DNA from: a virus
Lineage: Duplodnaviria > Caudoviricetes
DNA length: 64,000 nt
Virus record (IMG/VR): IMGVR_UViG_2721755344_000003
Span: 1 to 64,000 of that record
Strand: one strand, 5' to 3'
Shown here: piece after piece, positions 21,636 to 64,000 of the stretch
Layout: every line of letters starts with the position of its first letter
How positions within the stretch are numbered: position 1 is the stretch's first letter
The notes under the pieces: model-generated
What the model was told of the DNA's origin: nothing
The model's input: the letters and a program-made list of their open reading frames with translations, nothing else
The model's database searches: none
Position numbers and translations under genes: made by a program

Positions 21636-21758
21636 TTATTTACAACAAGGCATGGACCTCTTACGTCTTCGTACAGTCCTTCTCTGTACTATACGCCTGT
21701 ATGATCCATGACTCTTAGATTTACTTCGGCTTCTAACCTTACCTTTTCTTCTTGCCAT
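21636..21758 (-). CDS. Protamine-like 40-aa basic protein (not in ORF track)
   Basis: MARRKGKVRSRSKSKSHGSYRRIVQRRTVRRRKRSMPCCK; 18 of 40 residues Arg/Lys; TAATG coupling to the upstream ORF. Confidence 0.7.
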   Translation of the reverse strand: MARRKGKVRSRSKSKSHGSYRRIVQRRTVRRRKRSMPCCK

Positions 21759-21931
21759 TACCTTCTTTTTTTCCTTCGTCTTCCCATCTTCCTGAATGTA
21801 ACAGCTAAATTATAACGTCTTGATCCTTTCGGACAAGATGGACTACCAAACTTCTTACCAGTACATACTCCCTTTGTGCCTCTGCGTTTGATAGAACGAT
21901 TTACTTTTTGAATCCATCTCTTCTTTGCCAT
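21758..21931 (-). CDS. 57-aa highly basic protein (not in ORF track)
   Basis: MAKKRWIQKVNRSIKRRGTKGVCTGKKFGSPSCPKGSRRYNLAVTFRKMGRRRKKRR; no acidic residues. Confidence 0.72.
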   Translation of the reverse strand: MAKKRWIQKVNRSIKRRGTKGVCTGKKFGSPSCPKGSRRYNLAVTFRKMGRRRKKRR

Positions 21932-22023: not shown

Positions 22024-22191
22024 TTAACCGTACTGTTTCTTCTTATCCAAATAAGTCTTTAACATAAAGTCAACCTTTGTCTCTGCCTCTCTCATCTGTT
22101 TTAAGACATTTGGTTTCGCAGTAAGGGAATATTCATTCTGTAACTTCCGCATCCTCTGTACATCTTCTATAAAACTCTCAGGCATCCTCAT
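22024..22191 (-). CDS. 55-aa helical protein (not in ORF track)
   Basis: MRMPESFIEDVQRMRKLQNEYSLTAKPNVLKQMREAETKVDFMLKTYLDKKKQYG; its ATG overlaps the TGA of the upstream -1 frame. Confidence 0.6.
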   Translation of the reverse strand: MRMPESFIEDVQRMRKLQNEYSLTAKPNVLKQMREAETKVDFMLKTYLDKKKQYG

Positions 22192-22627
22192 CAGTTCTCA
22201 TTTGCATTAGATACCAAATATGCAGCATTATGATAAGTTGCTGCATTTGCAGTATTCCAGTTAACTGACGTTCCCGTTGTTAATACATTTCCTGCGGTCC
22301 CCTGAATACTATCATAATAATTATTTATACCCGATAATATACTTCCAGTTAGTTTTACGTCCTCATTCCTGATTTTCTCTTTTTTATTTTCCTGGAACTG
22401 GACGACACCTAAAAAGGGCGTATTGCAATATCAATCTGATCAAGTTGATCAGAATATTCCTCGGGAATGGCTTTAACTGCCATCATCTGAGCCACCTGAT
22501 CATTGATAGCAAGAATAGTTGTCGGTTCAACAAGAAGTTTTGTTTTTTCTTCTTTCTTATCTTCACCTTTCTCATTTTTCTTTGGATGCCAGAGAATAGC
22601 ATACTGATACAATTTTAAGTTTGTCAT
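22191..22627 (-). CDS. 72-aa protein (22409-22627) with predicted -1 frameshift extension of 73 aa to 22191
   Basis: The ORF ends CGC CCT TTT TAG with slippery heptamer C CCT TTT (22418-22412); the -1 frame is open to TGA at 22193-22191. Confidence 0.65.
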
Positions 22628-22674: not shown

Positions 22675-23304
22675 TCAATTTTTCCATTTTAAATTGTTTT
22701 TATAATAAATATTTGAATGATCAATAGACTTTATCCAATCTTTCCGTTGAACTACCGCACTAGGACCCGTCATACCTCCTACAATGACAAGATCCATACT
22801 ACTAAAATCTATGAACTTAAAGGTCGATAATAATGGTTCTATTGAAATGAATTTATGAACATGAGCATTATTATAACTTTTAAGTTCATCTAATCTACCA
22901 AGTCCTAATAACGATTCTACAGTCGTCCCTAACCATACATTCTCTGGAAAAATAATCTCATGATATCTTCCGGGATTCTTAGTAAGAAACATATATCTAT
23001 GTCCTGGCGTAAGCCAAATAACTTCAAGGATCCTATCTAACCATTCTTTATTAACCCACTTTCCAAAGAGATCACACATACTTCCTACATATATTGTAGA
23101 CCATTTTGATAATCCCATTGGTTTCTTTAATCTATCAGGAAAAAATTCTGGTTCATTCCAACTTGTTATCCAACCAAACCTATCATTCATTCTCCTGGCA
23201 TAACAATAATCACATCCATGTCTACATCCCACAACAGGATTCCAGGTATAATCAAGTTTCCACCCTTCTTCTGGATTTTCCCAATCTATTTTTGTCTTAT
23301 TCAT
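22675..23304 (-). CDS. DUF5131 (phage Gp37/Gp68) radical-SAM-like protein
   Basis: TWNPVVGCRHGCDYCYARRM (CxxxCxxC), GSMCDLF, FLTKNP, NVWLGTTVE, FISIEPLL, VIVGGMTG. Confidence 0.88.
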   Translation of the reverse strand: MNKTKIDWENPEEGWKLDYTWNPVVGCRHGCDYCYARRMNDRFGWITSWNEPEFFPDRLKKPMGLSKWSTIYVGSMCDLFGKWVNKEWLDRILEVIWLTPGHRYMFLTKNPGRYHEIIFPENVWLGTTVESLLGLGRLDELKSYNNAHVHKFISIEPLLSTFKFIDFSSMDLVIVGGMTGPSAVVQRKDWIKSIDHSNIYYKNNLKWKN

Positions 23305-51653: not shown

Positions 51654-54600
51654 CTAATCAATGGAATCTCTTATACGTTGTATAAACCTTACGTCTCTTA
51701 CCGGTCCTATATTACCTATATCGGAAACATTAGTCAAATTAGCTAACCTTATTATAGCACCAACAATAGGAATAGGATTCTGAAGAAAATCTTCCGCAGT
51801 AAAAGCAATGATAATGTCTCTCTTTATCCAGGCAAATTGTTGTTCCAGTTTATCATTATCCCATGATTTAAATAACCCTACTATCATACTAAATATTGCA
51901 AGAGTAACAGCAGACTTCATAAGATTAAGTTTTCTGGAGAACGATTGTTGATTCCACCATTCCGGGAAATTCTGTTTTTTAAGATTAGTAAGTGCTTTCA
52001 TTGTGGCATGAATACTCTGCCATGCTCCTTCTAATGTTAACATATCTTTCTGTGCAATCCATTCTCCTGTATCATCCTGTATTGCCTTATAACCTACTCC
52101 ATATTCTACCTGACGTGTTTTAGCAAACAATCCCATATTAAATAACCTGGGAAATGAGAACATTCTAAATACACTTATCATTGATCCTAACCATGTCATA
52201 GATGCTAACGGTTTATCTATTTCAGTAAAACCACCAACAATATATTTATCTGCATACCACTTAAGTGTTTTATTAGATAACGTAAAATCATGTCCCATAG
52301 GTTTATTAACACCTTCTTTGACAAGATTATTTTTTATATGTTGAAGTATAGCATATTCTCCATGTTCGGTTTTCTTAATACCATCTTTGGTATAGAATCT
52401 AAGATCCTTGATCTCATTGTAAGTTATCTTGCCAGACTTATTATCATAACTATAAGCATCGTAACTTCCTTCCATCAACATCCACGACACCATGCCTATC
52501 ATGCGTGCCTTATAATCTGTCATTCTATTACCAAAATGTCCCATTTGTTCTGTCACTAAATTTTTAGCTGTGGGATTGACAGTAATATTATCTATGAAAT
52601 CTCTCTCTGTACTTTCTATTAATTGGAGATCAAGGGCAAGTCTGCGTACTTTCTGTAAATCTTTCATAAAAATCAGATGAGCTTTAAAATTATCAGCAGG
52701 ACTTGGCAGATATCTTTTTTCTTCTTCAGATGTTATATTCACAAGGCCGGTGCCCAATGCTGTCATAACACTCTGAAGCGTATTAAATATTTCACTTTTT
52801 AATGCAATGACAGGACGAAATCCAAGCATTCCCAATGTAAATCCACGATTAACAGATCTCATTACAGAGGTAACATCAAACTTATGACCAAATAACTCTA
52901 TCTGTGCAGGTTCGTCTGCAGTCTTACGAAAAGCTAAACGTTGAGTATATAAATCTAAAAACTTCTTAGTATTCTTTAATGAATCATCTCTGCCAATAAT
53001 CCATTCCATATAACTAAGCATTGCCTGGGCATTGTTATAAGCAGGAAGAAATTGTGTCTCATAAACTTCTTTACGTATACCAGCTAACATAAAATATATC
53101 ATTGTATCAACAAGATTGGTACTCATAATATCATTATCATATTCACTCTTGACTTTAACCTTACCATTGATATCACGATATAACCCTGCAGAACCAAGTC
53201 TATTTTCTTCTCTTAACTGATTATGAAGAGAATTACCAAGCTGATCAAGATTATCATTCCTTCCTAACTCATCAGTAAATAGATTCTCGTAATTAGCCAT
53301 ATGAAGTCCCAATTTCTTCCATGCCTCACTGATATTCTTTTTCTTCAGACTGAGCATAAGTTCATTAATACTTTTTGTTATTACCGGAATATCTCCTCTC
53401 GTATATTGAGCATAGAATTGTTTCTCAGCATCTTTCCTTTCTACTTTATATTCTCCCTTTGCTCCTATATTAAATGAACTTTGCTTCATCTGATGAAAGA
53501 TATTATCTATCCATCTTTCTTCAAGTTTATCAAGTAATAGATTGGCAAACTCAATATCAGTATCAGTAATCCTTCTTATTGGATCTGCTATGTTATATAA
53601 AGCTTGTGTCTCTTTATCTTTAAGACTCCAATGTATCTTAGGAAGTTTAACTTCTATTTCTTCACCTTTCTGATTAGTTAATTTCTCTCTCTTATACAAA
53701 TGTTCAAAATACTTCGATCCCATATCACGTACTCTTGATGTAATTCTATCAGCAGGAAAACTCTGAAAATATTGTTCTATAATCTTTTCAGTAATAGGAA
53801 AGAATATATGATCAAACTGACGTATTTTCTCAAGAGTTATATTCTTAGCAAGTTCCCCATTCTGATTACTGTATTGTAAAACTTCATTATGAACATCAAA
53901 AGGATTAACAATCCATTTTTCAAGATTCTTCATATCACGAATCTCATTGACAAATCCTAGACGACCAGTTTCCAATTCACGTATAGCAAATGCTATCATC
54001 TGTGCTTCATATCGATTCGCTGCCTTATCCCAACCTTTACCAAAATGTTGTTCAACATCAGATTGCATCTTTTTAAGCATACGAATCTGATCTGCATTAC
54101 TTGTACTTGGATCAATAAACGCTTCATACTGGATCTTTGCATTGCCAGATAATACTCCACCCTCTTCATCTTTTATATCTCTGAGATAAGTAATAACCCT
54201 AGTTACCCATGATTGAATATAATTCATATCATAAAGTGTATCATCAGTCAACACTTCTTTGATAACCGGATTTTCTATCACATTCATAAACGAAGGAACT
54301 TTCTTAAGAACTTCTATATTCCGAATAAGTTTATTCAAATCGACAACCAGATGAGATTCTACACCTCCATATGTTACTCTTATACTACCAAGATTACGAA
54401 ATCTTACTTTATTATCAGTACTTTTTCTCATACTCATTGCCGACATACCTATAAAAATATTGTGTATATCAGCATCACTATTCCCCATATCTCCACCCAT
54501 ATTTGTAAAATCTGCAGCACCCTGGATAGTACTGGTAAGATGACTACCTTCCAGAAATAATCTTCTCCTAGAAAGAGATTTAGTTGTTATATCAAGAATA

Positions 54601-57600
54601 CTTACGTCTGCAGTTCCATCACTTTCAATATCATGAACAATAATATATGGATCATAACCAGTGAATGCGGGATTATATAAACCAGCCAGATACTTGTTCT
54701 TATGATTCTTAAGTTTTGAATACTTTATTATCTCAACAACAGTATCATAACCACCTATATAATGAATAAGATCCTTTAATACTTTATAATTATATTTACC
54801 CTGAAACGCTTCCTTTCCTGCACTGACAACACTATGACCTTCCTTGAATAAAGTAATGAATCTTTCCAATTGTGTTGGTAAGTTCTCTTCTTCTTTATTC
54901 ATGGCGGGAACAATAGAATTCCTTATAAAAGCCTTTAATGATTCATCACTTATCGTATCATCATAAGAAAATGTTTGTGATCCCACCTGGTAAATTAATT
55001 TACCACCACTTGTTCTACCACGCATAGTATTTGATATACCATTGATAAGATGTTCTTCAGACAATTGATCCATAGATACCTGATCGGTGGTATTATTATT
55101 AAGATAAGAAGCAAAATCTTTTATATCATTAACAGGATTATGAACAGGTATATTAGCATCAGATGCCTTCCCATTCTGACCATAGGCAGCAAGATAGATA
55201 GATCTATTTACATCATCATTGAAATCCAGAATTTTATTACCTGCAACAAAATCATCAGCCAAAGCAGTAAATAAATCCCCAAGAGTAGCATTTGCAAAGT
55301 CAAGTTGATCTATATTACTTGCAGGCTTTTTCACAATAGGTGTAACAATACCAAATATATTCTGAAAAAATCCTTTTACAGTTTCAACAATCTCACGTAT
55401 CAATCCTTTGAAATAATTCCATAATTGTAATGCTACATTATAACCACCAACATTATTATTTATAACCCATGATTTTACTTTCTGGAATGTATAAAATCCA
55501 CCAACTATTGATAACATCTCATTCCTTAACTTCTCTTCATTCAATACTCTTCCATGTTCAAGATAGATTCTGCGTATGGCATTGGAAAAATCTTTATTTA
55601 ATTCCATATATCTACCTATAGCATCATGCATTCTTACATATAATTCAGGATTGCGAATCTTAATAATCCTATTCCAGATATGTTGAAGTTCATGTAATCC
55701 CGTATCATAAGCCATCCTGTCAGTGTTGATATGTATTCCCTTGTTATCTATCCAAGCATTATGATTTTTATATCCCTGTTGTTCAGAGGTAAGATCAGTT
55801 TCTTTTATAATATCCAATCCTGGAACAACAAGTCCTAGTCTGTCAATAACTGCAGTTGTTGCCCTGGCATCAACCTGACGTGCCTCTAATGCTTTAAATA
55901 TATCGATACTAAGATCCATATCGTTTATATCATCATTCTTCTTATCAAGAATTGCAGGATCTTTTTTTATCTGTACCTTTTCATATGGTGCTAATACTTC
56001 AATGAGAAACTTTTCTATTTTTTTACCTATACCTGGTGAAACGCTCTCACTATTGGCAGCGACATTTAAAATCTTAATATTATTATCAACTATCCATTTT
56101 CTGAAAGTTTTTAAATCGGTAGTTGTAGTAGATGGTTTGATATATTTCTTAATAAGATTACGTGTTAATGCCACTCTTGATTCTTTCTCATCTTCGATCC
56201 ATAGGAATGTACCATCAGCCATTCTTACATTAAGATCTATACTTTCCTTATATGACTGAATAAGATCTTTAGTTTTATTTGGTTCAAGACCAAACTCTTT
56301 TAATTCCTTATCACTTCCACTTTCATTTTTATACCTGTATGCAGTTGCACCACCAGTAGGTATACCAAGAATACGTGCAGCATATAAAGCATTTTTCTCT
56401 CCTAATTGACCACTACTATTTATTTGAGTAATACCAAGATATCTTTCTCCTTCCTTCTCTCCCCTCTTCTTCATCTTTTCACGATAAACAAGATCCATCA
56501 TCGCCTGTTGTTCACGTTCTTTTTTATACAATGGATCATCGCTCTTTACGAATGTAACAGATGTTGGTGTAACATCCTTAGCTTTTACCACCTCTCCTGT
56601 CTCAGTAATATATTCAGATCCTTCCTTATATCCATGACCACGAAAATATTCTTTTACAACCTTACCTGGTTTATCTGCTATCTTACGTATCTCATCAAGT
56701 TCTTTAGCTGTAAGATTACGTAATAGTTCCTGGGATATTGTTGTCATCTTTATTCCACTATCAAAACCACCACGATTTATTGTAGGATTAACAAACTGAA
56801 ATGCATCCAATTCATTACTCCAACGTTTATTACTTCTAACCCAATATAATCCTGCTATCTGTCGTCTTGAAGTTACTACATCTGGCATTTTCTTTTTCTT
56901 CTCTATCACATCACTCCTTCTTATTGTCCTTGCCATCCCGGGACGTGTCTCAACATATTCCTTGAAGTTCTTACCTACATCATCCATAACTGCCTGTAAA
57001 AACTCCTTATGTTTAAGCATATTCTTAAATTCTTCCATGCTATCACTTAACCCTTTATTCCCAAAATACATCATTGTACCCATAATATCACTGATAGTTC
57101 CCTTCTTCCACCTCATAAATGTTGCCATAAGATTATTTGCACCGAACATTTCCTGTAATCTTTTTGGTAACATTTTAAAGTCATTAGATAAGTTTGCTAT
57201 ATCATTATCAGACAGTCCGAAATTATCTCTTAATCCAAAAAATTCTTGTCCTGTTCTTCCTATTAATTGTAACCTATTTAAAAATCCACTATTCTTTATA
57301 GCATTTATATCTTCTTTAGTAAATCCACCAATATCTTTTATATCTTCCCAATAGACATCATAATCTGACTTTTCAAGTTTGGATATATTAATAATATGTT
57401 CCATAAAATATGGAAACTGAAGTAGGTACATAGCACGATCATAACCACTGGATATATTCAACTTATTCGTAGTTGTACTTTTCTTATGCCAGTGACCATC
57501 ATAATATTCAGGATAAGACAGATCAAACCTATCTTCAGAATATTTACTCTTCCAATGAAAATCAAGTATCTCTTCAGTTATGGCAGTAAAAAATCCATAG

Positions 57601-60600
57601 TATATCTTCTTTGACCCCCAATTTGATCTATTCTGTCCATGTAAGAAATTCATTCCCCATTTATAAAATTCAGGATCATTCAAAAGAAATGTCTTCATAT
57701 TTTGTTCAAACTCCTCGGCATGTTCACGATAATATTCATTGAACTGAGGAAGATTTCTCAATATTTCAGTTATATTAATCTGACTTGCTATATCCGATTC
57801 GTTTTTGAACAACCGGTTTTTCTCTGCATCAATATCTTTTCTTAATGGATGAGTAAGATCATTATCAAAGAAACTATAGTCATCACTATTGGAGGCATAA
57901 TAAGTCATGTGAGAATCAAGAGTCCATTCTTTAGGTGGAATATTTCGATCGCCAAAGAAATCTTTATATGTCATACCAGTATATCTCTGAGCATTGAATG
58001 TAAACATCTCATTCTCAAAATCCAGGGCAATAATACCATTACGAAGACCAATAAACGTACCGAGTCTCCTTAATGCCTCTGCTTTAACTGCAATAGATTT
58101 AAGTTCCTTAAGTTTACTATAATTATCATTTGACTCAAGTGTATCTTCTAACTTATTTCTTAAAGAAATCTTATCTTCTATCTGATCTACAAGTAAAGGA
58201 TTATCTTTCCACTTAGGAGTATCCACTTTAATTTTCTTAATCTCTTTATTATAATCATCAATTGCTTTAATAGTTTCTTCTATCTCTTTCTTTTCAAGTG
58301 GTTGATATAATTTAATATCTTTATCGATCACATCTAATAGTAAGTGATCCCTCATACTTTCACTTGCAGATTCTCCAGCTTCAACATCATAAAATACATT
58401 TCTTATTGCCGGATGAAAAAAGAATTTTCTTATATCATCCACTGTCTTTCCTTCAGTGATAAGAACAGGAAGTAATGGAACAGCAGATAAACTTATACCG
58501 AATCTTCCCAGGATAAGTTTTTTAACATTATCCAAGGCAGCAACAAGCCAGTCACCTTCTTTAGACAATATAGATTCCTTTCCTGCAACATCCAGATTCT
58601 GAAACATTTTAAGGAATCCTGGTGCAAGTGAAAATCCGGCAGGACCAAGTTGTGCCATATAAGCTATAGTACTCATACTTCTAGCTAATATACCTATAGC
58701 TTTTTTACCACTACGTGAGATATTATACATCTCAAGATGATTAGCATAAGAATTCCAACGCATAAACCGTGGATCTCTTGGTATCTTATCAGCTTCTTCT
58801 TCAAGATTATTTATCTCAGAAGTGATAAATATATTCTCTGAATTTATCTTATCAAGATAAATTGTCCTTAACTGATCAAGAATAGCATTTTGTATACCAC
58901 CAGCATTATCACTCCTGTCAACAAGATTATTCTCATCCAAAGCATAGAAATAAACACTTCTTTGGTCAATATCGAAGTCAGTATCATCATATACTGTCTG
59001 TTCACTTGGGATATATGTATTATTGCCATTATCATTGACAAAGAATGTTATATCTCCTAGGAATGCACTTTGTAATCCATGTGAAGGTATACGTGTAGAT
59101 ATAGCACTAAGAGTATTCTCAACATTGTCTATCCAACTTATTATATTGTTAAGATCAACAGTAACTTCTGTATCTGGTTTAAATATTCCTTCAAGTTCAC
59201 GAAACTGACGTACCATCGGTGTAGCATTAAAATCTGTTTTCGGAAGATTCTCAGCTATAGTATTCATCCTGGCACTCCTATCCATCTTGCGTATATTAAT
59301 ACGTAATCCATCATTAAGAATAATAGTAAATAAATCATTCACACTCTCTGAAGGTTTTACACCAAATCTTGTCATATATGAAAATGGCATAACCATCTCG
59401 CCAGGAGTTGTACCATCCTCACCTTTTCTCATACCATGTAGTTTTCTACGTGTATATCCTTTAGATAATACCTGACTAATATTCTCCCGGGTAATTTCCA
59501 TCTTAAGATCTCTCTCAACTTCTTTAAGAGAATAAGGAATACCATCTTTTTCAAATACATCAAAATAATCTGCCGTTACCTGATTTGCTCTAAGACCACT
59601 GAAGAATGGTTTAATAGCTTTTCTGGTTATAAGACTACGGTAAGCCTGTAATAATTTCTGACGAAGAGGTGGAATTCCTACAGAGATCTGTTCATTAAGG
59701 ACAAGTTCTGCATAGTTTCCTATCTGCCCCATCTCATTTAAAGCATCCATTCCTACACCACGTAAATATTTCTCATATTGTGCAATCCTACGATCTTCAC
59801 CTTTCAATCCTGGTTCAACAATCTCTTCCGATATCTTATCATCTATCTCTCTTTTTGCATTAATAAATAATGTACGGAATAAACGATTTATCTCTTTCCC
59901 TGCTCTACGATTAACTTCATTGCCAACCCCTGCATAAGACATGATCTGAAGCATTGGCGTTACCCTGGATGGATCAAAGACATCCTGATAAGGATTTAAT
60001 ACCACTTTAATCTTATCGTTTCTTATATCATCAGAAAGAAGATCTAAACCCCTCTTCCCTTCCTTGATATTAAGAGGATCATAGATATCATTCCATGGAT
60101 TATAAATATTAATTTTGGATATAGCACCTTTAACAGAAGATCTATTGGCTAATTTCCAAACAAGATTACTTTTGAACGAATCTCTCATCTCGTCATCATC
60201 AATATAATATTCTACGGTTTGACGTATGGCTTTAGCGAAATCATTCCTGCCAGTATAATCATAGAACATCTTCCATGTGGCAAATACATCTATCTTTCTT
60301 CCTAACTCCTTAGACATTAACATACTGGTATGATCAACCATGGTCTTAAACATATCCCTCATAGGGATACCCATATTATATGTATCGCCAGTAATAAAAT
60401 CTACAGCTTCTTTATGAAGAATCTTCTTACCACTTGTAAGATTAACATCATTATAAAGACTCTTAACATCTGTTTTATCTATCGGACCATATTTGCCACC
60501 GAGACTTTGATAGAATAAATATTCCCATAAAGGATTACCAAGATTACCACCATCACTGAGCTTATAAATCTTTTTTAATTCCGGATTAACATCTTCCAGA

Positions 60601-63600
60601 TCCTTCACATAAATGACTTTCGATATCTTACTAAGACCATATTTAATATCAGTATCAAGAAAATTACCACCAGTATTAACAGGACCGGAATATTTACTTT
60701 TATCTGTAGGACTCTTAAAATGACTCTGATCAGCAAAGACAAGTGGATCCATATTGTATTTTAAGATCTCTGAAGCAAAAAAGAATGCCCTGAAGAATGG
60801 ATTATAACCCATTATTCTACCTTCTCTTAATCCAGTATTAGTTTTATAATACCAATCACTTTCTGAAGGAGATAATCCTTTCATCCATGATAAAGGTTTA
60901 TACCTGGCATGAGATAATTTTGTAGCAAAATTCTTATACTCTTCATCAAAAATATTATTCAACATATTAAGATTCCATTCCTTCTGAATATTGCTCCAAT
61001 TCTGTTTATTAAACACTGGATCATCAAACACCGGTGCCCTGCCAAGTTGCAATATATTACCTTTAACCTCATAATCAGTAATGTCTTCCAGTTCTCTTAA
61101 TGCTCTTTCAATCAATTTAGGATCCTTTGTACTCCATTCTCTTGAAAAAGGTATATTCCTACCAAGAACCTTAGTTACTCTTGCCTGACTCAACTGTGCA
61201 ACCCTTGCTCTATGTTGAAACTCCTTATATACTGCATTAAGAATAAGATCTTCATTAATAGTCATTCCGGTTATCCTACCATTTTCATCCCTTGTGATAT
61301 CTTCAATAAGATGTTTATGTCCAGTATTATCAAATGTAAATTCTGCAAGAAATATACGTCCAGTATCAGATATATTGCCCACATCAATTAATAATTTTTC
61401 CGGCTGACCTAATCTGTTACGTTGAATACTATCAGCAAAAGCTGAGATAAGCATAGTATTAAGATCAGACTCATTGGGATCATCAGTAGCCTTGATCTGA
61501 TCAATACTTGTATAATCTATAAGACGTATAATCTCTGCAGTACTCTTTGGATCCAGTAAAATATTATAGTATTCTTTGACACCATCTCTCATCTGCACAA
61601 ACTGACTTGTATTGATAACAGAAGGATCTGCAACAATATCTTTCTTTACTTGATCCTTTATCCATCTACTACCATGTGCAAATGTTTCTTTAAGTTCAGA
61701 TGATAATTCGAAATTATATCTTATATGACCTACATAATCAGTTCCCCACCGATTCCAATCCTCTCCTCTGTGATAACTTTCACTTATACCAAGAGCAGTT
61801 AAAAAAGGATAAAAATCTACCGGAGTTGGTAATATCTCTTTATTGATAGTTCCTTCATCATCTTCCAGGTCCACAACCTTATTTATATCATCCAGATTTT
61901 CTTCACGTAGGTTAAATTTCTTAAGAAACCTATTCATATGATCCTGAAACGGTATCTTTTTCCTTGCTTCTTCCTTATACTTCTCTTCATTCTTATTAAT
62001 CTTCTTATATTTTTTCTCCGCTTCTTCTTCGGTAAATTCTCCAAGTTCAAGTCTTCTGTCAATATCCAAAGTATCTGTTGCATACTTATCATGAATACCT
62101 TTAAGATTCTCACTAAGTTTAATATTGGCATAAATACTATAGAACATATTAGCAAATCCTTCAGCGACAAGATCTGAAATAAATGTATCACTACTAACAT
62201 CAAGATTAGTTATTTTCTCAGCAAGTCTATCACGTACTGCAGGAACATTATTATCTATCATATTCAAGAATGCATCCTGACGCATATGAGATAAACCAAG
62301 AAAACTTTTCATATGAAGTAACATCTCCTTACGACTTGTTTCTGGAAGATCAGCAAACATCCATTTCCCATTGCGATTTATTATTACCTGTGTTTCCTTA
62401 TCACGTCCTACATAATAAATACCATCATCACGTATATCCCACACCTTTCCCTTATTCTCTTTATCACCAATAAGGGCATCATGAATCTCTTTAACTACAG
62501 ATTGACTACCAGGATAAAATACCCTGCGTACTATATGAGTCTTAAATTCATTCTTTATAATTTCCTCAGTATTTTCTTCCTGTGTACGTAAACTAATAAA
62601 TCTATCCGGATCAAAACCGGTTATCCTTAGATCTGCTTGTGTACGTTTAATAAGAGATTTATTAAAATTTATAGTAGCAGTTATAAGATTAGCAATATCT
62701 ATCCCTCTATCTTTTAAATTACCATCTTCCTCATTAAGATATCTATCAGATATTTCCTTCAATGATCCTATAGTCTTAGTGATCACTCCTTCACCTTCAA
62801 TAAATGGCATACCATAATACTTCTCTACAAAACTTAGAATATTATTCGATTTATAATTATTACTCTTTGCTCCTGATGCCAGATCAAGAAGTTCCTGGAA
62901 GAATGTATCAGTGAAATTTAAAGTAGGATCATTCTTTAAACGAGTTTTAGTTTTATCAGCAACTTCCTTAAGTGATCTACTTAAATCATTAACATTGACA
63001 AATCGTTGTCCTTCACCAAATGGACTTATAGTATCAAAAGATTTTACTTTCTCAATCTCACCAGACTCTGTATGTCTGTATTCATTATATTCCGTAACTG
63101 TAAGTTGCCAATCAACAATATCATCCTTATACATTTCCGGATCAACCTTGTCATGATCAGTCTGTATACTATCCTGCCCCCATTTAACAAATGCCTTACG
63201 ATAAAAATTATATCCCGGGAATACACTCTGGATAAATGTTCTTATTGTTTTTTCATCTGACAATCTATAATAATAATATTGTTTTAAACTTTCATTGTCA
63301 AGACTTGGAAGATCATCCGGAGATATTGCACCAATAAGTTTATCAACATTTGTATTAACAACAGCTAATTGTCTGCGTCTGGTTGCCTTAAATGCATTCT
63401 CTACAGCACTGATAGCATCATTAAGAGGAACAGGATTCTTACCAAGATTATTAAAATGACTCTTGCGATGAATATTATATGCTATCTGTCTACGTATATC
63501 ATGAACAGTTTCCGCCCTTCCAAACTCTCTGTATAATCCCTGATAATTATTATAATCGGAAACAGGACGATTCTTAATATTCTCTGTCAGATCTTCATCA

Positions 63601-64000
63601 TCTGTCCAATATTGACTTGACTTTTGAAGTGTACCCGAACTATCAAATCCTTCTATTGGATTATTACTTATACCTTCATTAACTCCATCAAGGATCATTG
63701 CATCAGTCTCTCTTGCATCTGTATTATTTGTCTTTGGTAATTTAAAGTTTATAGTATTTAACTCATCCTCTTCGGTTTGTTCCCTTCCAACTTTATCAAC
63801 AGTATTTTCTAATTGATCTTTCCAATTATTAAGAATATCATTGACACTGAAATTTGCATAAGGAACATGAATCTCTTTAACATCAGTGACAAGAAGATCT
63901 TCATCTGCTTCTGCAACGACAGGAACCTTACCGGTCTTCTCTATATTCAAAGGCCAATAAAGTTTATTTAACATACTCTGAACTGCATTAAAATAACCAG
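51654..64000 (-). CDS. Giant crAss-like virion RNA polymerase polyprotein (5' partial, at least 4114 aa)
   Basis: DFDID catalytic motif at 58979-58965, preceded by RIPSHGLQS. The frame stays open upstream of the ORF-track Met (GYFNAVQS-MLNK) to the window edge. SLOG-like and HELQH domains follow the polymerase core. Confidence 0.88.
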   Translation of the reverse strand, partial: GYFNAVQSMLNKLYWPLNIEKTGKVPVVAEADEDLLVTDVKEIHVPYANFSVNDILNNWKDQLENTVDKVGREQTEEDELNTINFKLPKTNNTDARETDAMILDGVNEGISNNPIEGFDSSGTLQKSSQYWTDDEDLTENIKNRPVSDYNNYQGLYREFGRAETVHDIRRQIAYNIHRKSHFNNLGKNPVPLNDAISAVENAFKATRRRQLAVVNTNVDKLIGAISPDDLPSLDNESLKQYYYYRLSDEKTIRTFIQSVFPGYNFYRKAFVKWGQDSIQTDHDKVDPEMYKDDIVDWQLTVTEYNEYRHTESGEIEKVKSFDTISPFGEGQRFVNVNDLSRSLKEVADKTKTRLKNDPTLNFTDTFFQELLDLASGAKSNNYKSNNILSFVEKYYGMPFIEGEGVITKTIGSLKEISDRYLNEEDGNLKDRGIDIANLITATINFNKSLIKRTQADLRITGFDPDRFISLRTQEENTEEIIKNEFKTHIVRRVFYPGSQSVVKEIHDALIGDKENKGKVWDIRDDGIYYVGRDKETQVIINRNGKWMFADLPETSRKEMLLHMKSFLGLSHMRQDAFLNMIDNNVPAVRDRLAEKITNLDVSSDTFISDLVAEGFANMFYSIYANIKLSENLKGIHDKYATDTLDIDRRLELGEFTEEEAEKKYKKINKNEEKYKEEARKKIPFQDHMNRFLKKFNLREENLDDINKVVDLEDDEGTINKEILPTPVDFYPFLTALGISESYHRGEDWNRWGTDYVGHIRYNFELSSELKETFAHGSRWIKDQVKKDIVADPSVINTSQFVQMRDGVKEYYNILLDPKSTAEIIRLIDYTSIDQIKATDDPNESDLNTMLISAFADSIQRNRLGQPEKLLIDVGNISDTGRIFLAEFTFDNTGHKHLIEDITRDENGRITGMTINEDLILNAVYKEFQHRARVAQLSQARVTKVLGRNIPFSREWSTKDPKLIERALRELEDITDYEVKGNILQLGRAPVFDDPVFNKQNWSNIQKEWNLNMLNNIFDEEYKNFATKLSHARYKPLSWMKGLSPSESDWYYKTNTGLREGRIMGYNPFFRAFFFASEILKYNMDPLVFADQSHFKSPTDKSKYSGPVNTGGNFLDTDIKYGLSKISKVIYVKDLEDVNPELKKIYKLSDGGNLGNPLWEYLFYQSLGGKYGPIDKTDVKSLYNDVNLTSGKKILHKEAVDFITGDTYNMGIPMRDMFKTMVDHTSMLMSKELGRKIDVFATWKMFYDYTGRNDFAKAIRQTVEYYIDDDEMRDSFKSNLVWKLANRSSVKGAISKINIYNPWNDIYDPLNIKEGKRGLDLLSDDIRNDKIKVVLNPYQDVFDPSRVTPMLQIMSYAGVGNEVNRRAGKEINRLFRTLFINAKREIDDKISEEIVEPGLKGEDRRIAQYEKYLRGVGMDALNEMGQIGNYAELVLNEQISVGIPPLRQKLLQAYRSLITRKAIKPFFSGLRANQVTADYFDVFEKDGIPYSLKEVERDLKMEITRENISQVLSKGYTRRKLHGMRKGEDGTTPGEMVMPFSYMTRFGVKPSESVNDLFTIILNDGLRINIRKMDRSARMNTIAENLPKTDFNATPMVRQFRELEGIFKPDTEVTVDLNNIISWIDNVENTLSAISTRIPSHGLQSAFLGDITFFVNDNGNNTYIPSEQTVYDDTDFDIDQRSVYFYALDENNLVDRSDNAGGIQNAILDQLRTIYLDKINSENIFITSEINNLEEEADKIPRDPRFMRWNSYANHLEMYNISRSGKKAIGILARSMSTIAYMAQLGPAGFSLAPGFLKMFQNLDVAGKESILSKEGDWLVAALDNVKKLILGRFGISLSAVPLLPVLITEGKTVDDIRKFFFHPAIRNVFYDVEAGESASESMRDHLLLDVIDKDIKLYQPLEKKEIEETIKAIDDYNKEIKKIKVDTPKWKDNPLLVDQIEDKISLRNKLEDTLESNDNYSKLKELKSIAVKAEALRRLGTFIGLRNGIIALDFENEMFTFNAQRYTGMTYKDFFGDRNIPPKEWTLDSHMTYYASNSDDYSFFDNDLTHPLRKDIDAEKNRLFKNESDIASQINITEILRNLPQFNEYYREHAEEFEQNMKTFLLNDPEFYKWGMNFLHGQNRSNWGSKKIYYGFFTAITEEILDFHWKSKYSEDRFDLSYPEYYDGHWHKKSTTTNKLNISSGYDRAMYLLQFPYFMEHIINISKLEKSDYDVYWEDIKDIGGFTKEDINAIKNSGFLNRLQLIGRTGQEFFGLRDNFGLSDNDIANLSNDFKMLPKRLQEMFGANNLMATFMRWKKGTISDIMGTMMYFGNKGLSDSMEEFKNMLKHKEFLQAVMDDVGKNFKEYVETRPGMARTIRRSDVIEKKKKMPDVVTSRRQIAGLYWVRSNKRWSNELDAFQFVNPTINRGGFDSGIKMTTISQELLRNLTAKELDEIRKIADKPGKVVKEYFRGHGYKEGSEYITETGEVVKAKDVTPTSVTFVKSDDPLYKKEREQQAMMDLVYREKMKKRGEKEGERYLGITQINSSGQLGEKNALYAARILGIPTGGATAYRYKNESGSDKELKEFGLEPNKTKDLIQSYKESIDLNVRMADGTFLWIEDEKESRVALTRNLIKKYIKPSTTTTDLKTFRKWIVDNNIKILNVAANSESVSPGIGKKIEKFLIEVLAPYEKVQIKKDPAILDKKNDDINDMDLSIDIFKALEARQVDARATTAVIDRLGLVVPGLDIIKETDLTSEQQGYKNHNAWIDNKGIHINTDRMAYDTGLHELQHIWNRIIKIRNPELYVRMHDAIGRYMELNKDFSNAIRRIYLEHGRVLNEEKLRNEMLSIVGGFYTFQKVKSWVINNNVGGYNVALQLWNYFKGLIREIVETVKGFFQNIFGIVTPIVKKPASNIDQLDFANATLGDLFTALADDFVAGNKILDFNDDVNRSIYLAAYGQNGKASDANIPVHNPVNDIKDFASYLNNNTTDQVSMDQLSEEHLINGISNTMRGRTSGGKLIYQVGSQTFSYDDTISDESLKAFIRNSIVPAMNKEEENLPTQLERFITLFKEGHSVVSAGKEAFQGKYNYKVLKDLIHYIGGYDTVVEIIKYSKLKNHKNKYLAGLYNPAFTGYDPYIIVHDIESDGTADVSILDITTKSLSRRRLFLEGSHLTSTIQGAADFTNMGGDMGNSDADIHNIFIGMSAMSMRKSTDNKVRFRNLGSIRVTYGGVESHLVVDLNKLIRNIEVLKKVPSFMNVIENPVIKEVLTDDTLYDMNYIQSWVTRVITYLRDIKDEEGGVLSGNAKIQYEAFIDPSTSNADQIRMLKKMQSDVEQHFGKGWDKAANRYEAQMIAFAIRELETGRLGFVNEIRDMKNLEKWIVNPFDVHNEVLQYSNQNGELAKNITLEKIRQFDHIFFPITEKIIEQYFQSFPADRITSRVRDMGSKYFEHLYKREKLTNQKGEEIEVKLPKIHWSLKDKETQALYNIADPIRRITDTDIEFANLLLDKLEERWIDNIFHQMKQSSFNIGAKGEYKVERKDAEKQFYAQYTRGDIPVITKSINELMLSLKKKNISEAWKKLGLHMANYENLFTDELGRNDNLDQLGNSLHNQLREENRLGSAGLYRDINGKVKVKSEYDNDIMSTNLVDTMIYFMLAGIRKEVYETQFLPAYNNAQAMLSYMEWIIGRDDSLKNTKKFLDLYTQRLAFRKTADEPAQIELFGHKFDVTSVMRSVNRGFTLGMLGFRPVIALKSEIFNTLQSVMTALGTGLVNITSEEEKRYLPSPADNFKAHLIFMKDLQKVRRLALDLQLIESTERDFIDNITVNPTAKNLVTEQMGHFGNRMTDYKARMIGMVSWMLMEGSYDAYSYDNKSGKITYNEIKDLRFYTKDGIKKTEHGEYAILQHIKNNLVKEGVNKPMGHDFTLSNKTLKWYADKYIVGGFTEIDKPLASMTWLGSMISVFRMFSFPRLFNMGLFAKTRQVEYGVGYKAIQDDTGEWIAQKDMLTLEGAWQSIHATMKALTNLKKQNFPEWWNQQSFSRKLNLMKSAVTLAIFSMIVGLFKSWDNDKLEQQFAWIKRDIIIAFTAEDFLQNPIPIVGAIIRLANLTNVSDIGNIGPVRDVRFIQRIRDSID

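Follow-up and report, generated by a model that had tools for sequence, protein, structure and literature searches.

A family of small proteins of tailed phages appears to be expressed by way of a programmed -1 ribosomal frameshift, which would give two isoforms from one gene; in the phage genome considered here these are a 72-aa protein and a C-terminally extended protein of 145 aa. The probability that the frameshift is real and family-wide is put at roughly 0.87. The anatomy of the slip site can be read directly from the DNA, and comparison of homologous loci provides evidence for selection at the synonymous positions of the site, for a -1 frame that is coding but startless, and for the equivalence of the predicted long product to fusions found in nature. 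The slippage itself is inferred, and no product has been observed. The gene is situated in a 64,000-nucleotide stretch of a tailed phage genome, which is termed the window.

Slip site and -1 frame

The gene is on the minus strand. An ORF scan finds the 0-frame open reading frame at positions 22409–22627, and this encodes the short, 72-aa isoform, which ends ...IAIRPF. The 3′ end of the reading frame is ATA CGC CCT TTT TAG, with the TAG stop at 22411–22409. Read as CG-C CCT TTT, it contains the slippery heptamer C CCU UUU (22412–22418, minus strand), which is in the X XXY YYZ phase and abuts the 0-frame stop.

The -1 frame extension, including its TGA, is at 22191–22412 of the same strand. It consists of 73 sense codons (22412–22194), the first of which specifies Leu, and the 72-aa part joined to it makes up the 145-aa long isoform. 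The frame has no ATG and no GTG, and its single TTG is at codon 65. The TGA (22193–22191) shares its A with the ATG (22191–22189) of the next gene, found at 22024–22191 on the minus strand, which thus starts within a TGATG overlap; this gene encodes a 55-aa protein of unknown function (phrog_15937). Overlapping stops and starts tightly couple the genes of the operon, and if the -1 frame is ignored, a gap of 217 bases is left inside what is otherwise a tightly packed operon. A candidate stimulatory hairpin, CGUCC.GUUCC ... GGAAU..GGACG with an A-rich loop, is present on the minus strand at 22358–22404 and begins 7 nt past the heptamer. An earlier note on this DNA had described the end of the 72-aa reading frame, the phase of the heptamer and the TGATG overlap, and every detail of this layout is correct on re-inspection. 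The 73-codon frame without an ATG and the hairpin, which the same note had also reported, were found again.

Reassignment of TAG to Gln, as occurs in some crAss-like phages, was considered as a reason for the stop and rejected. Read-through of the TAG adds only 17 codons before a TAA is reached, and among family members each of the three stop codons is found next to the heptamer. In addition, two long reading frames of the genome (2,089 and more than 4,100 codons) are intact under translation table 11.

The heptamer alone is unremarkable in the window. CCCTTTY is present in 13 copies, against 14.1 expected, so the bare heptamer is not rare. The case rests on comparison with relatives. A stop-free frame of 73 codons is a rare outcome, found in just 25 of 20,000 shuffles of the same composition. 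It is also unusual that the first C of the heptamer is supplied by CGC, since only 2.4% of the Arg codons in the long reading frames of the window are of this type. Judged by the comparative evidence that follows, the slip-site feature is far beyond chance.

Conservation of the heptamer in homologous loci

Homologous loci were collected from viral and metagenome contigs by a DNA pattern which consists of IPEEY, 11 free codons and then [R/S]-P-F (MGN CCN TTY). Any codon for Arg, Pro and Phe was accepted by the pattern, which made no requirement on the sequence 3′ of the Phe codon; membership of the matches in the family was confirmed with a profile HMM. It should be pointed out that the IPEEY requirement means that the loci sample only one part of the family. 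Relatives with KPF, HPF, QPF and VPF+ ends, and the relative P0097, are outside this DNA-level survey.

The codon-neutral search yielded 65 distinct family loci, and CGC CCT TTY is exact in 62 of them, with TTT and TTC found 31 times each. A stop codon is immediately 3′ of this sequence in 60 of the 62 loci (TAG in 23, TGA in 23 and TAA in 14). The remaining two (L116:644 and L106:8504) show CGC CCT TTC, two sense codons and then a stop; thus the adjacency of heptamer and stop is usual, not obligatory. The same arrangement is found in two genome-bin loci (Ignavibacteriales and Dehalococcoidia), where the extensions are 66 and 70 codons in length. It is also present in LR756501.1, a 735-kb huge uncultured phage, in which the gene ends GTG CGC CCT TTT TAA. 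The extension in this phage (L178:3204-3767) is 188 codons in length and includes a long collagen-like run of G-T-S and G-S-S triplets. The LR756501.1 record is without any annotation.

Two controls bear on codon choice. The pattern also matched 38 sequences outside the family, and CGC CCT is present in only one of these. A second conserved Pro of the gene, that within IPEEY, is encoded by CCC in 27 loci, CCA in 18, CCG in 11 and CCT in 9. Among 51 sequences from which redundancy at 85% identity had been removed, neither synonymous position of the heptamer varies, and neighbouring third positions of the same sequences carry about 0.1 bit. When the pattern was relaxed to leave residue 70 free, no further family members were detected in viral contigs. 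As far as can be deduced from these comparisons, the heptamer is under selection at synonymous sites.

The three loci that lack the heptamer are natural in-frame fusions of the two parts. Their fusion sequences are CGT CCT TTC TTG, which reads RPF-L, and GCG CCT TTT AGT. The RPF-L fusion is the junction that a frameshift at the heptamer would be predicted to produce.

The fusions raise the question of whether the split gene of the window is simply a damaged form of a single 145-codon reading frame, produced by a sequencing or assembly error (five T in place of six) or by a recent inactivating mutation. The break is indeed located in a homopolymer, and relatives fused in frame do exist. However, the same split is found with the heptamer in more than 60 independent assemblies, which come from varied samples and vary in GC content, and in about half of these the sequence is CCT TTC, with no more than three T in succession. 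Moreover, the protein ends precisely at RPF in 117 of its best 150 relatives. An error or inactivating mutation is extremely unlikely on this evidence.

Slippage by RNA polymerase on the T run, which would generate mRNAs with an extra U and require no ribosome slip, would give the same long product, and five consecutive T are indeed present in the window. Runs of about seven or more A or T are required at known sites of transcriptional slippage. In half of the family there are only three T (CCT TTC, then the stop), and polymerase slippage offers no reason for the C CC part of the heptamer to be fixed. This explanation is scarcely tenable. A ribosomal frameshift remains the preferred reading of the conserved site.

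Coding character of the -1 frame

The -1 frame stays within the contig in 54 heptamer loci, and it is open in all 54, with lengths of 29–135 codons. Base composition is consistent with translation of this frame. Among loci whose extension has a GC content of at least 0.60, GC peaks at the third codon position in 15 of 16; among those with a GC content of 0.45 or less, it is at its lowest there in 16 of 16. The GC3 signature is thus consistent with the -1 frame in 31 of the 32 GC-informative loci. Differences between related pairs number 132, 137 and 214 at codon positions 1, 2 and 3, respectively (the pairs are not independent). This third-position excess is moderate and suggests a coding sequence under weak constraint; the linker part evolves fast.

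The end of the extension is the part with a recognizable signature. A C-terminal motif, Y-x-[NST]-A-[AS]-x-[LIV], is common to 44 of 47 aligned extensions, and the longer family consensus is P-[AS]-x-Y-x-[NST]-A-[AS]-x-[LIV]. The alignment of the 47 extensions has a mean column identity of 12%, and an Ala at residue 63 is conserved in at least 90%. In the window, the motif is at 22212–22244 on the minus strand, and corresponds to residues 57–67 of the -1 product, A-A-T-Y-H-N-A-A-Y-L-V. Word-based protein searches with the extension of the window, and with that of the P0109 fusion, found no relatives, and a viral-contig scan seeded with the -1 peptide gave no match.

Perhaps the -1 frame is a separate small gene, expressed by termination and reinitiation or from a non-canonical start close to where the 72-aa reading frame stops, with no fusion protein made. 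Two observations would fit this, the tight coupling of stops and starts in the operon and the fact that 17 of 54 loci have an ATG, GTG or TTG among the first 10 codons of the frame. But most of these early TTG codons are a by-product of the sequence TTT TGA. Three of the 54 frames have no ATG, GTG or TTG at all, 29 have the first one more than 10 codons in, and the frame in the window offers nothing but the TTG at codon 65. Furthermore, reinitiation needs no fixed CGC and CCT at synonymous sites, and there are natural relatives that fuse both parts in frame and then lose the heptamer. A separate gene is improbable in light of these findings. As inferred from the related loci, the -1 frame is coding and is without a conserved start of its own, as a frameshift would require.

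Of 46 relatives' loci, 15 have a -1 frame whose stop overlaps the next start, and in 29 of the 46 the stop is within -8 to +30 nt of that start. This coupling is also of interest with respect to another explanation, i.e. that CGCCCTTTY is kept for some other reason, such as an RNA or DNA signal or a translational pause, and that the -1 frame is rarely or never translated. RPF itself is strongly conserved and the protein sequence explains part of the nucleotide conservation; with the function unknown, other roles of the sequence are not excluded. However, a signal of this type leaves unexplained the startless open frames (54 of 54), the GC3 signature, the C-terminal motif and the stop-start coupling. 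It also leaves unexplained why loss of the heptamer is confined to in-frame fusions. It is considered quite improbable.

The earlier note had proposed two checks of the frameshift in homologues, retention of the terminal RPF with its heptamer and coding potential of the -1 frame. Both favour the frameshift: CGC CCT TTY is kept at synonymous positions in 62 of 65 loci, and the -1 frame is open and startless, shows the signature of coding and carries a common motif near its C-terminal end.

Downstream RNA structure and other possible stimulators

The hairpin of the window (22404–22358) has a minimum free energy of -13.4 kcal/mol and a centroid energy of -11.6 kcal/mol (z = -2.17), and five of 200 shuffled sequences fold as well. 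In the family as a whole, the 45 nt past the stop are more stable than background from the same locus (Wilcoxon p = 4e-4), with a median percentile of 0.25 and with 22% of loci below the 5th percentile. When folded with this 45-nt window, the site of the phage itself is unremarkable. Many loci have a clear GC-rich stem 5–8 nt past the heptamer; in many others it is weak or absent. The downstream sequences of the loci do not align, and there is no covariation evidence for the stem. Support for a downstream hairpin is only modest, and not all members of the family have one.

No conserved Shine-Dalgarno-like element was seen upstream of the site in the family alignment of 51 sequences. Apart from the heptamer, the most constant feature is the adjacent stop (60 of 62 loci), and it is inferred that this stop contributes to pausing.

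The protein family and predicted folds

A HMMER search of 1.84 billion cluster representatives with the 72-aa protein detected 398 relatives at E ≤ 1e-3. Nearly all are 66–75 aa in length and are aligned through their last residue. About 20% of the best 150 do not have the RPF end and terminate in KPF, HPF, QPF or VPF+; in a 50-sequence alignment, P71 and F72 are invariant. Sources of the family are soil, freshwater, sediment, sludge and gut, and the phages differ widely in genome size.

A few relatives (P0046, P0109 and P0097) have C-terminal extensions in the same frame. P0046 continues as RPF-LEQSS... into an N/T/S-rich tail. P0109 continues as APF-SKRT..., and its sequence INWNNETSSY resembles VNWNTANAATY of the -1 peptide of the window.

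Only two GenBank phage records contain the family; both are from huge uncultured phages and lack annotation. A search of GenBank phage DNA with the 6-kb neighbourhood of the gene gave no match, nor did a viral-contig scan with the KPF variant. In a scan of viral contigs for close relatives, the only match to the 72-aa protein was in L003, an unrelated GC-rich phage; this match was rejected as probably due to chance, the search having been seeded on WHPKKNEKGE. The match at L003:2501-2728 is to a 258-aa protein that has the exact WHPKKNEKGE sequence, and it is located between a portal-sized reading frame (640 aa) and the next gene.

AlphaFold2 (AF2) predicts with confidence a beta-beta-alpha-alpha-beta fold for the 72-aa domain (pLDDT 89.5). 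Foldseek comparison of this model with the PDB and BFVD found no match at E ≤ 0.001. The best VIA-align Z score was 6.2 (PurS, the eL20 N-terminus and PaaB), which is inside the noise range stated for the tool. Searches of Pfam and PHROGs with both halves gave nothing above cut-off, only a sub-threshold match to DnaJ, and in the ESM Atlas only 'hypothetical protein' clusters of tailed phages were found.

The extension was folded alone in AF2, without the N-terminal domain. Residues 1–50 have pLDDT values of 54–62 and the last 23 or so residues values of 80–94, with a helix at 63–71 over the motif. The model and the alignment together indicate that the tail is a poorly conserved and probably flexible linker that leads to a conserved module of about 20 residues with a predicted helical end. 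The tail had originally been viewed as a low-complexity sequence. Given the conserved module at its end, it is more than that.

Genomic setting

The viral record is 88,492 bp in length and has direct terminal repeats and a GC content of about 33%. No tRNA genes were found in it. The genome encodes a large terminase, a 2,089-aa fibre-like protein, a DnaB-like helicase and a RusA-like resolvase. A single reading frame of more than 4,100 codons is present at 51654–64000 on the minus strand and runs off the end of the window.

The frameshift gene shares its strand with the lysis and structural genes. Its upstream neighbour encodes a DUF5131 protein, and downstream there are small reading frames followed by lysis genes (M15-type endolysin). 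The DUF5131 (Gp37/Gp68-like) gene, at 22675–23304 on the minus strand, has an N-terminal CxxxCxxC-type motif and a Pfam E value of 9e-41. Two genes downstream of the frameshift gene, at 21636–21931 (minus strand), there are two neighbouring micro-ORFs of 57 and 40 aa, coupled in translation, that are extremely rich in Arg and Lys; neither has a Pfam or PHROG match.

Neighbouring genes were surveyed in 20 relatives with long flanks, and 71 neighbouring proteins of at least 150 aa were scanned. Five of the 71 match the PD-(D/E)XK nuclease family, and others are Erf-like and Sak4-like annealing proteins, endonuclease VII and D5-like proteins; DUF5131 is found once. No neighbour is conserved at the BLAST level among the 20 relatives. 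Use of DUF5131 as a synteny anchor gave 80 loci, none with the frameshift family, and a viral-contig scan with the 55-aa neighbour found no match. The presence of nuclease, annealing and endonuclease VII genes beside the relatives places the family in a setting of DNA-metabolism and early-type genes, not in the tail module. The earlier note had located the gene outside any tail-chaperone context, and this agrees both with the DUF5131, small-ORF and lysis neighbours in the window and with the exonuclease, Erf, Sak4 and endonuclease VII neighbours of the relatives.

Proposed mechanism and significance

In the proposed mechanism, most ribosomes would read CGC CCU UUU, terminate at the UAG and release the 72-aa protein ending in RPF. 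A fraction would slip back by one base on C CCU UUU, whereby tRNA-Pro re-pairs from CCU to CCC and tRNA-Phe from UUU to UUU. The slipped ribosomes would then read UUA (Leu) and 72 more codons to make the 145-aa protein, with the junction ...IRPF-LGVV.... Pausing at the slip site is probably brought about by the adjacent stop together with the hairpin that begins 7 nt past the heptamer. The junction peptide of the long isoform expected in mass spectrometry is PFLGVVQFQENK. Slippage, its efficiency, the part played by the hairpin and stop, and any function of either isoform are at this point inferences only.

The C-terminal module may be a docking or oligomerisation peptide, and the frameshift would then set the ratio of plain to tail-bearing subunits; a fixed ratio has not been shown. 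A broader proposal, which is tentative and more doubtful than not, is that the gene is part of a second phage-wide recoding module, situated in the DNA-metabolism or early block and similar in breadth to G/GT. The isoforms might co-assemble via the 72-aa domain, with the long one docking a phage or host partner by means of its tether and C-terminal helix (Y-x-N-A-A-x-L), and the rate of frameshifting might set the stoichiometry of the complex. Such a module would be present in hundreds of tailed-phage lineages, including those with very large genomes.

A whole family of small phage proteins that was previously unannotated in this respect thus appears to depend on a programmed frameshift. Gene callers miss the extension; its place in the annotation is either empty for some 200 bases or taken by a short reading frame that is spurious. 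A simple annotation rule can be offered for the family: a reading frame of about 70 aa that ends in CGC CCT TTY plus a stop. The more than 60 natural sites represent a clean data set for slippage on C CCU UUY beside a stop codon with bacterial ribosomes. In addition, the protein, which is uncharacterised and bears a conserved peptide tethered at its C-terminus, is marked for functional study.

Comparison with known systems

Conserved programmed frameshifts in phages are known mainly from tail chaperones and from a few capsid genes. A full-text literature search for CCCUUUU or CCCTTTT together with frameshifting found no paper that describes the present family. The search did find the heptamer in flaviviruses (the string C CCU UUU occurs in PMC11797035) and in other contexts. 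It also found a -2 site in the tail chaperone of phage 9g.

The NS1′ frameshift of flaviviruses (West Nile/Japanese encephalitis group) slips on C CCU UUU. The heptamer is identical to that of the phage gene, and the flavivirus case proves that this sequence supports efficient -1 slippage if RNA structure is present downstream. The NS1′ system differs in that it involves eukaryotic ribosomes, an RNA virus, a strong pseudoknot and unrelated proteins, whereas the phage gene has a bacterial context, a stop that abuts the heptamer and at most a simple hairpin.

The tau and gamma proteins of Escherichia coli dnaX also come from a bacterial -1 frameshift that gives two isoforms of one protein, and dnaX is a DNA-metabolism gene. 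The dnaX frameshift gives the shorter product and has an upstream Shine-Dalgarno-like element and a hairpin. By contrast, the phage frameshift would give the longer product, with no conserved upstream element seen.

Capsid proteins extended by frameshifting are those of T7 gene 10A/10B and the major head protein of Lactobacillus phage A2 (Garcia et al., 2004, as cited in PMC10885494). As in T7 and A2, a -1 slip at the end of the reading frame would add a short C-terminal extension to a fraction of the subunits of one protein. The N-terminal part of the phage protein appears unlike these, a 72-aa domain with a predicted beta-beta-alpha-alpha-beta fold. No capsid family or fold matched the 72-aa product in Pfam, PHROGs or the fold searches; the size of 72 aa alone makes an HK97-type capsid protein implausible, but a missing fold match is not proof.

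Parallels can also be drawn with the tail assembly chaperones gpG and gpGT of lambda and their counterparts in phages with long tails (Xu, Hendrix and Duda, 2004, as cited in PMC4276943 and PMC10885494). The phage gene, unlike G/GT, is not located between the tail tube and tape measure genes, and neither of its halves matches a chaperone family in Pfam or PHROGs. In addition, G/GT slip sites vary in sequence, whereas the phage family has an almost fixed heptamer (C CCU UUY) right next to the stop. Nevertheless, the two systems share a -1 slip on X XXY YYZ near the 3′ end of a small reading frame, which in the phage family would likewise yield a short and a C-terminally extended isoform. In both, recoding appears to have been kept across very divergent phages while the proteins themselves drifted.
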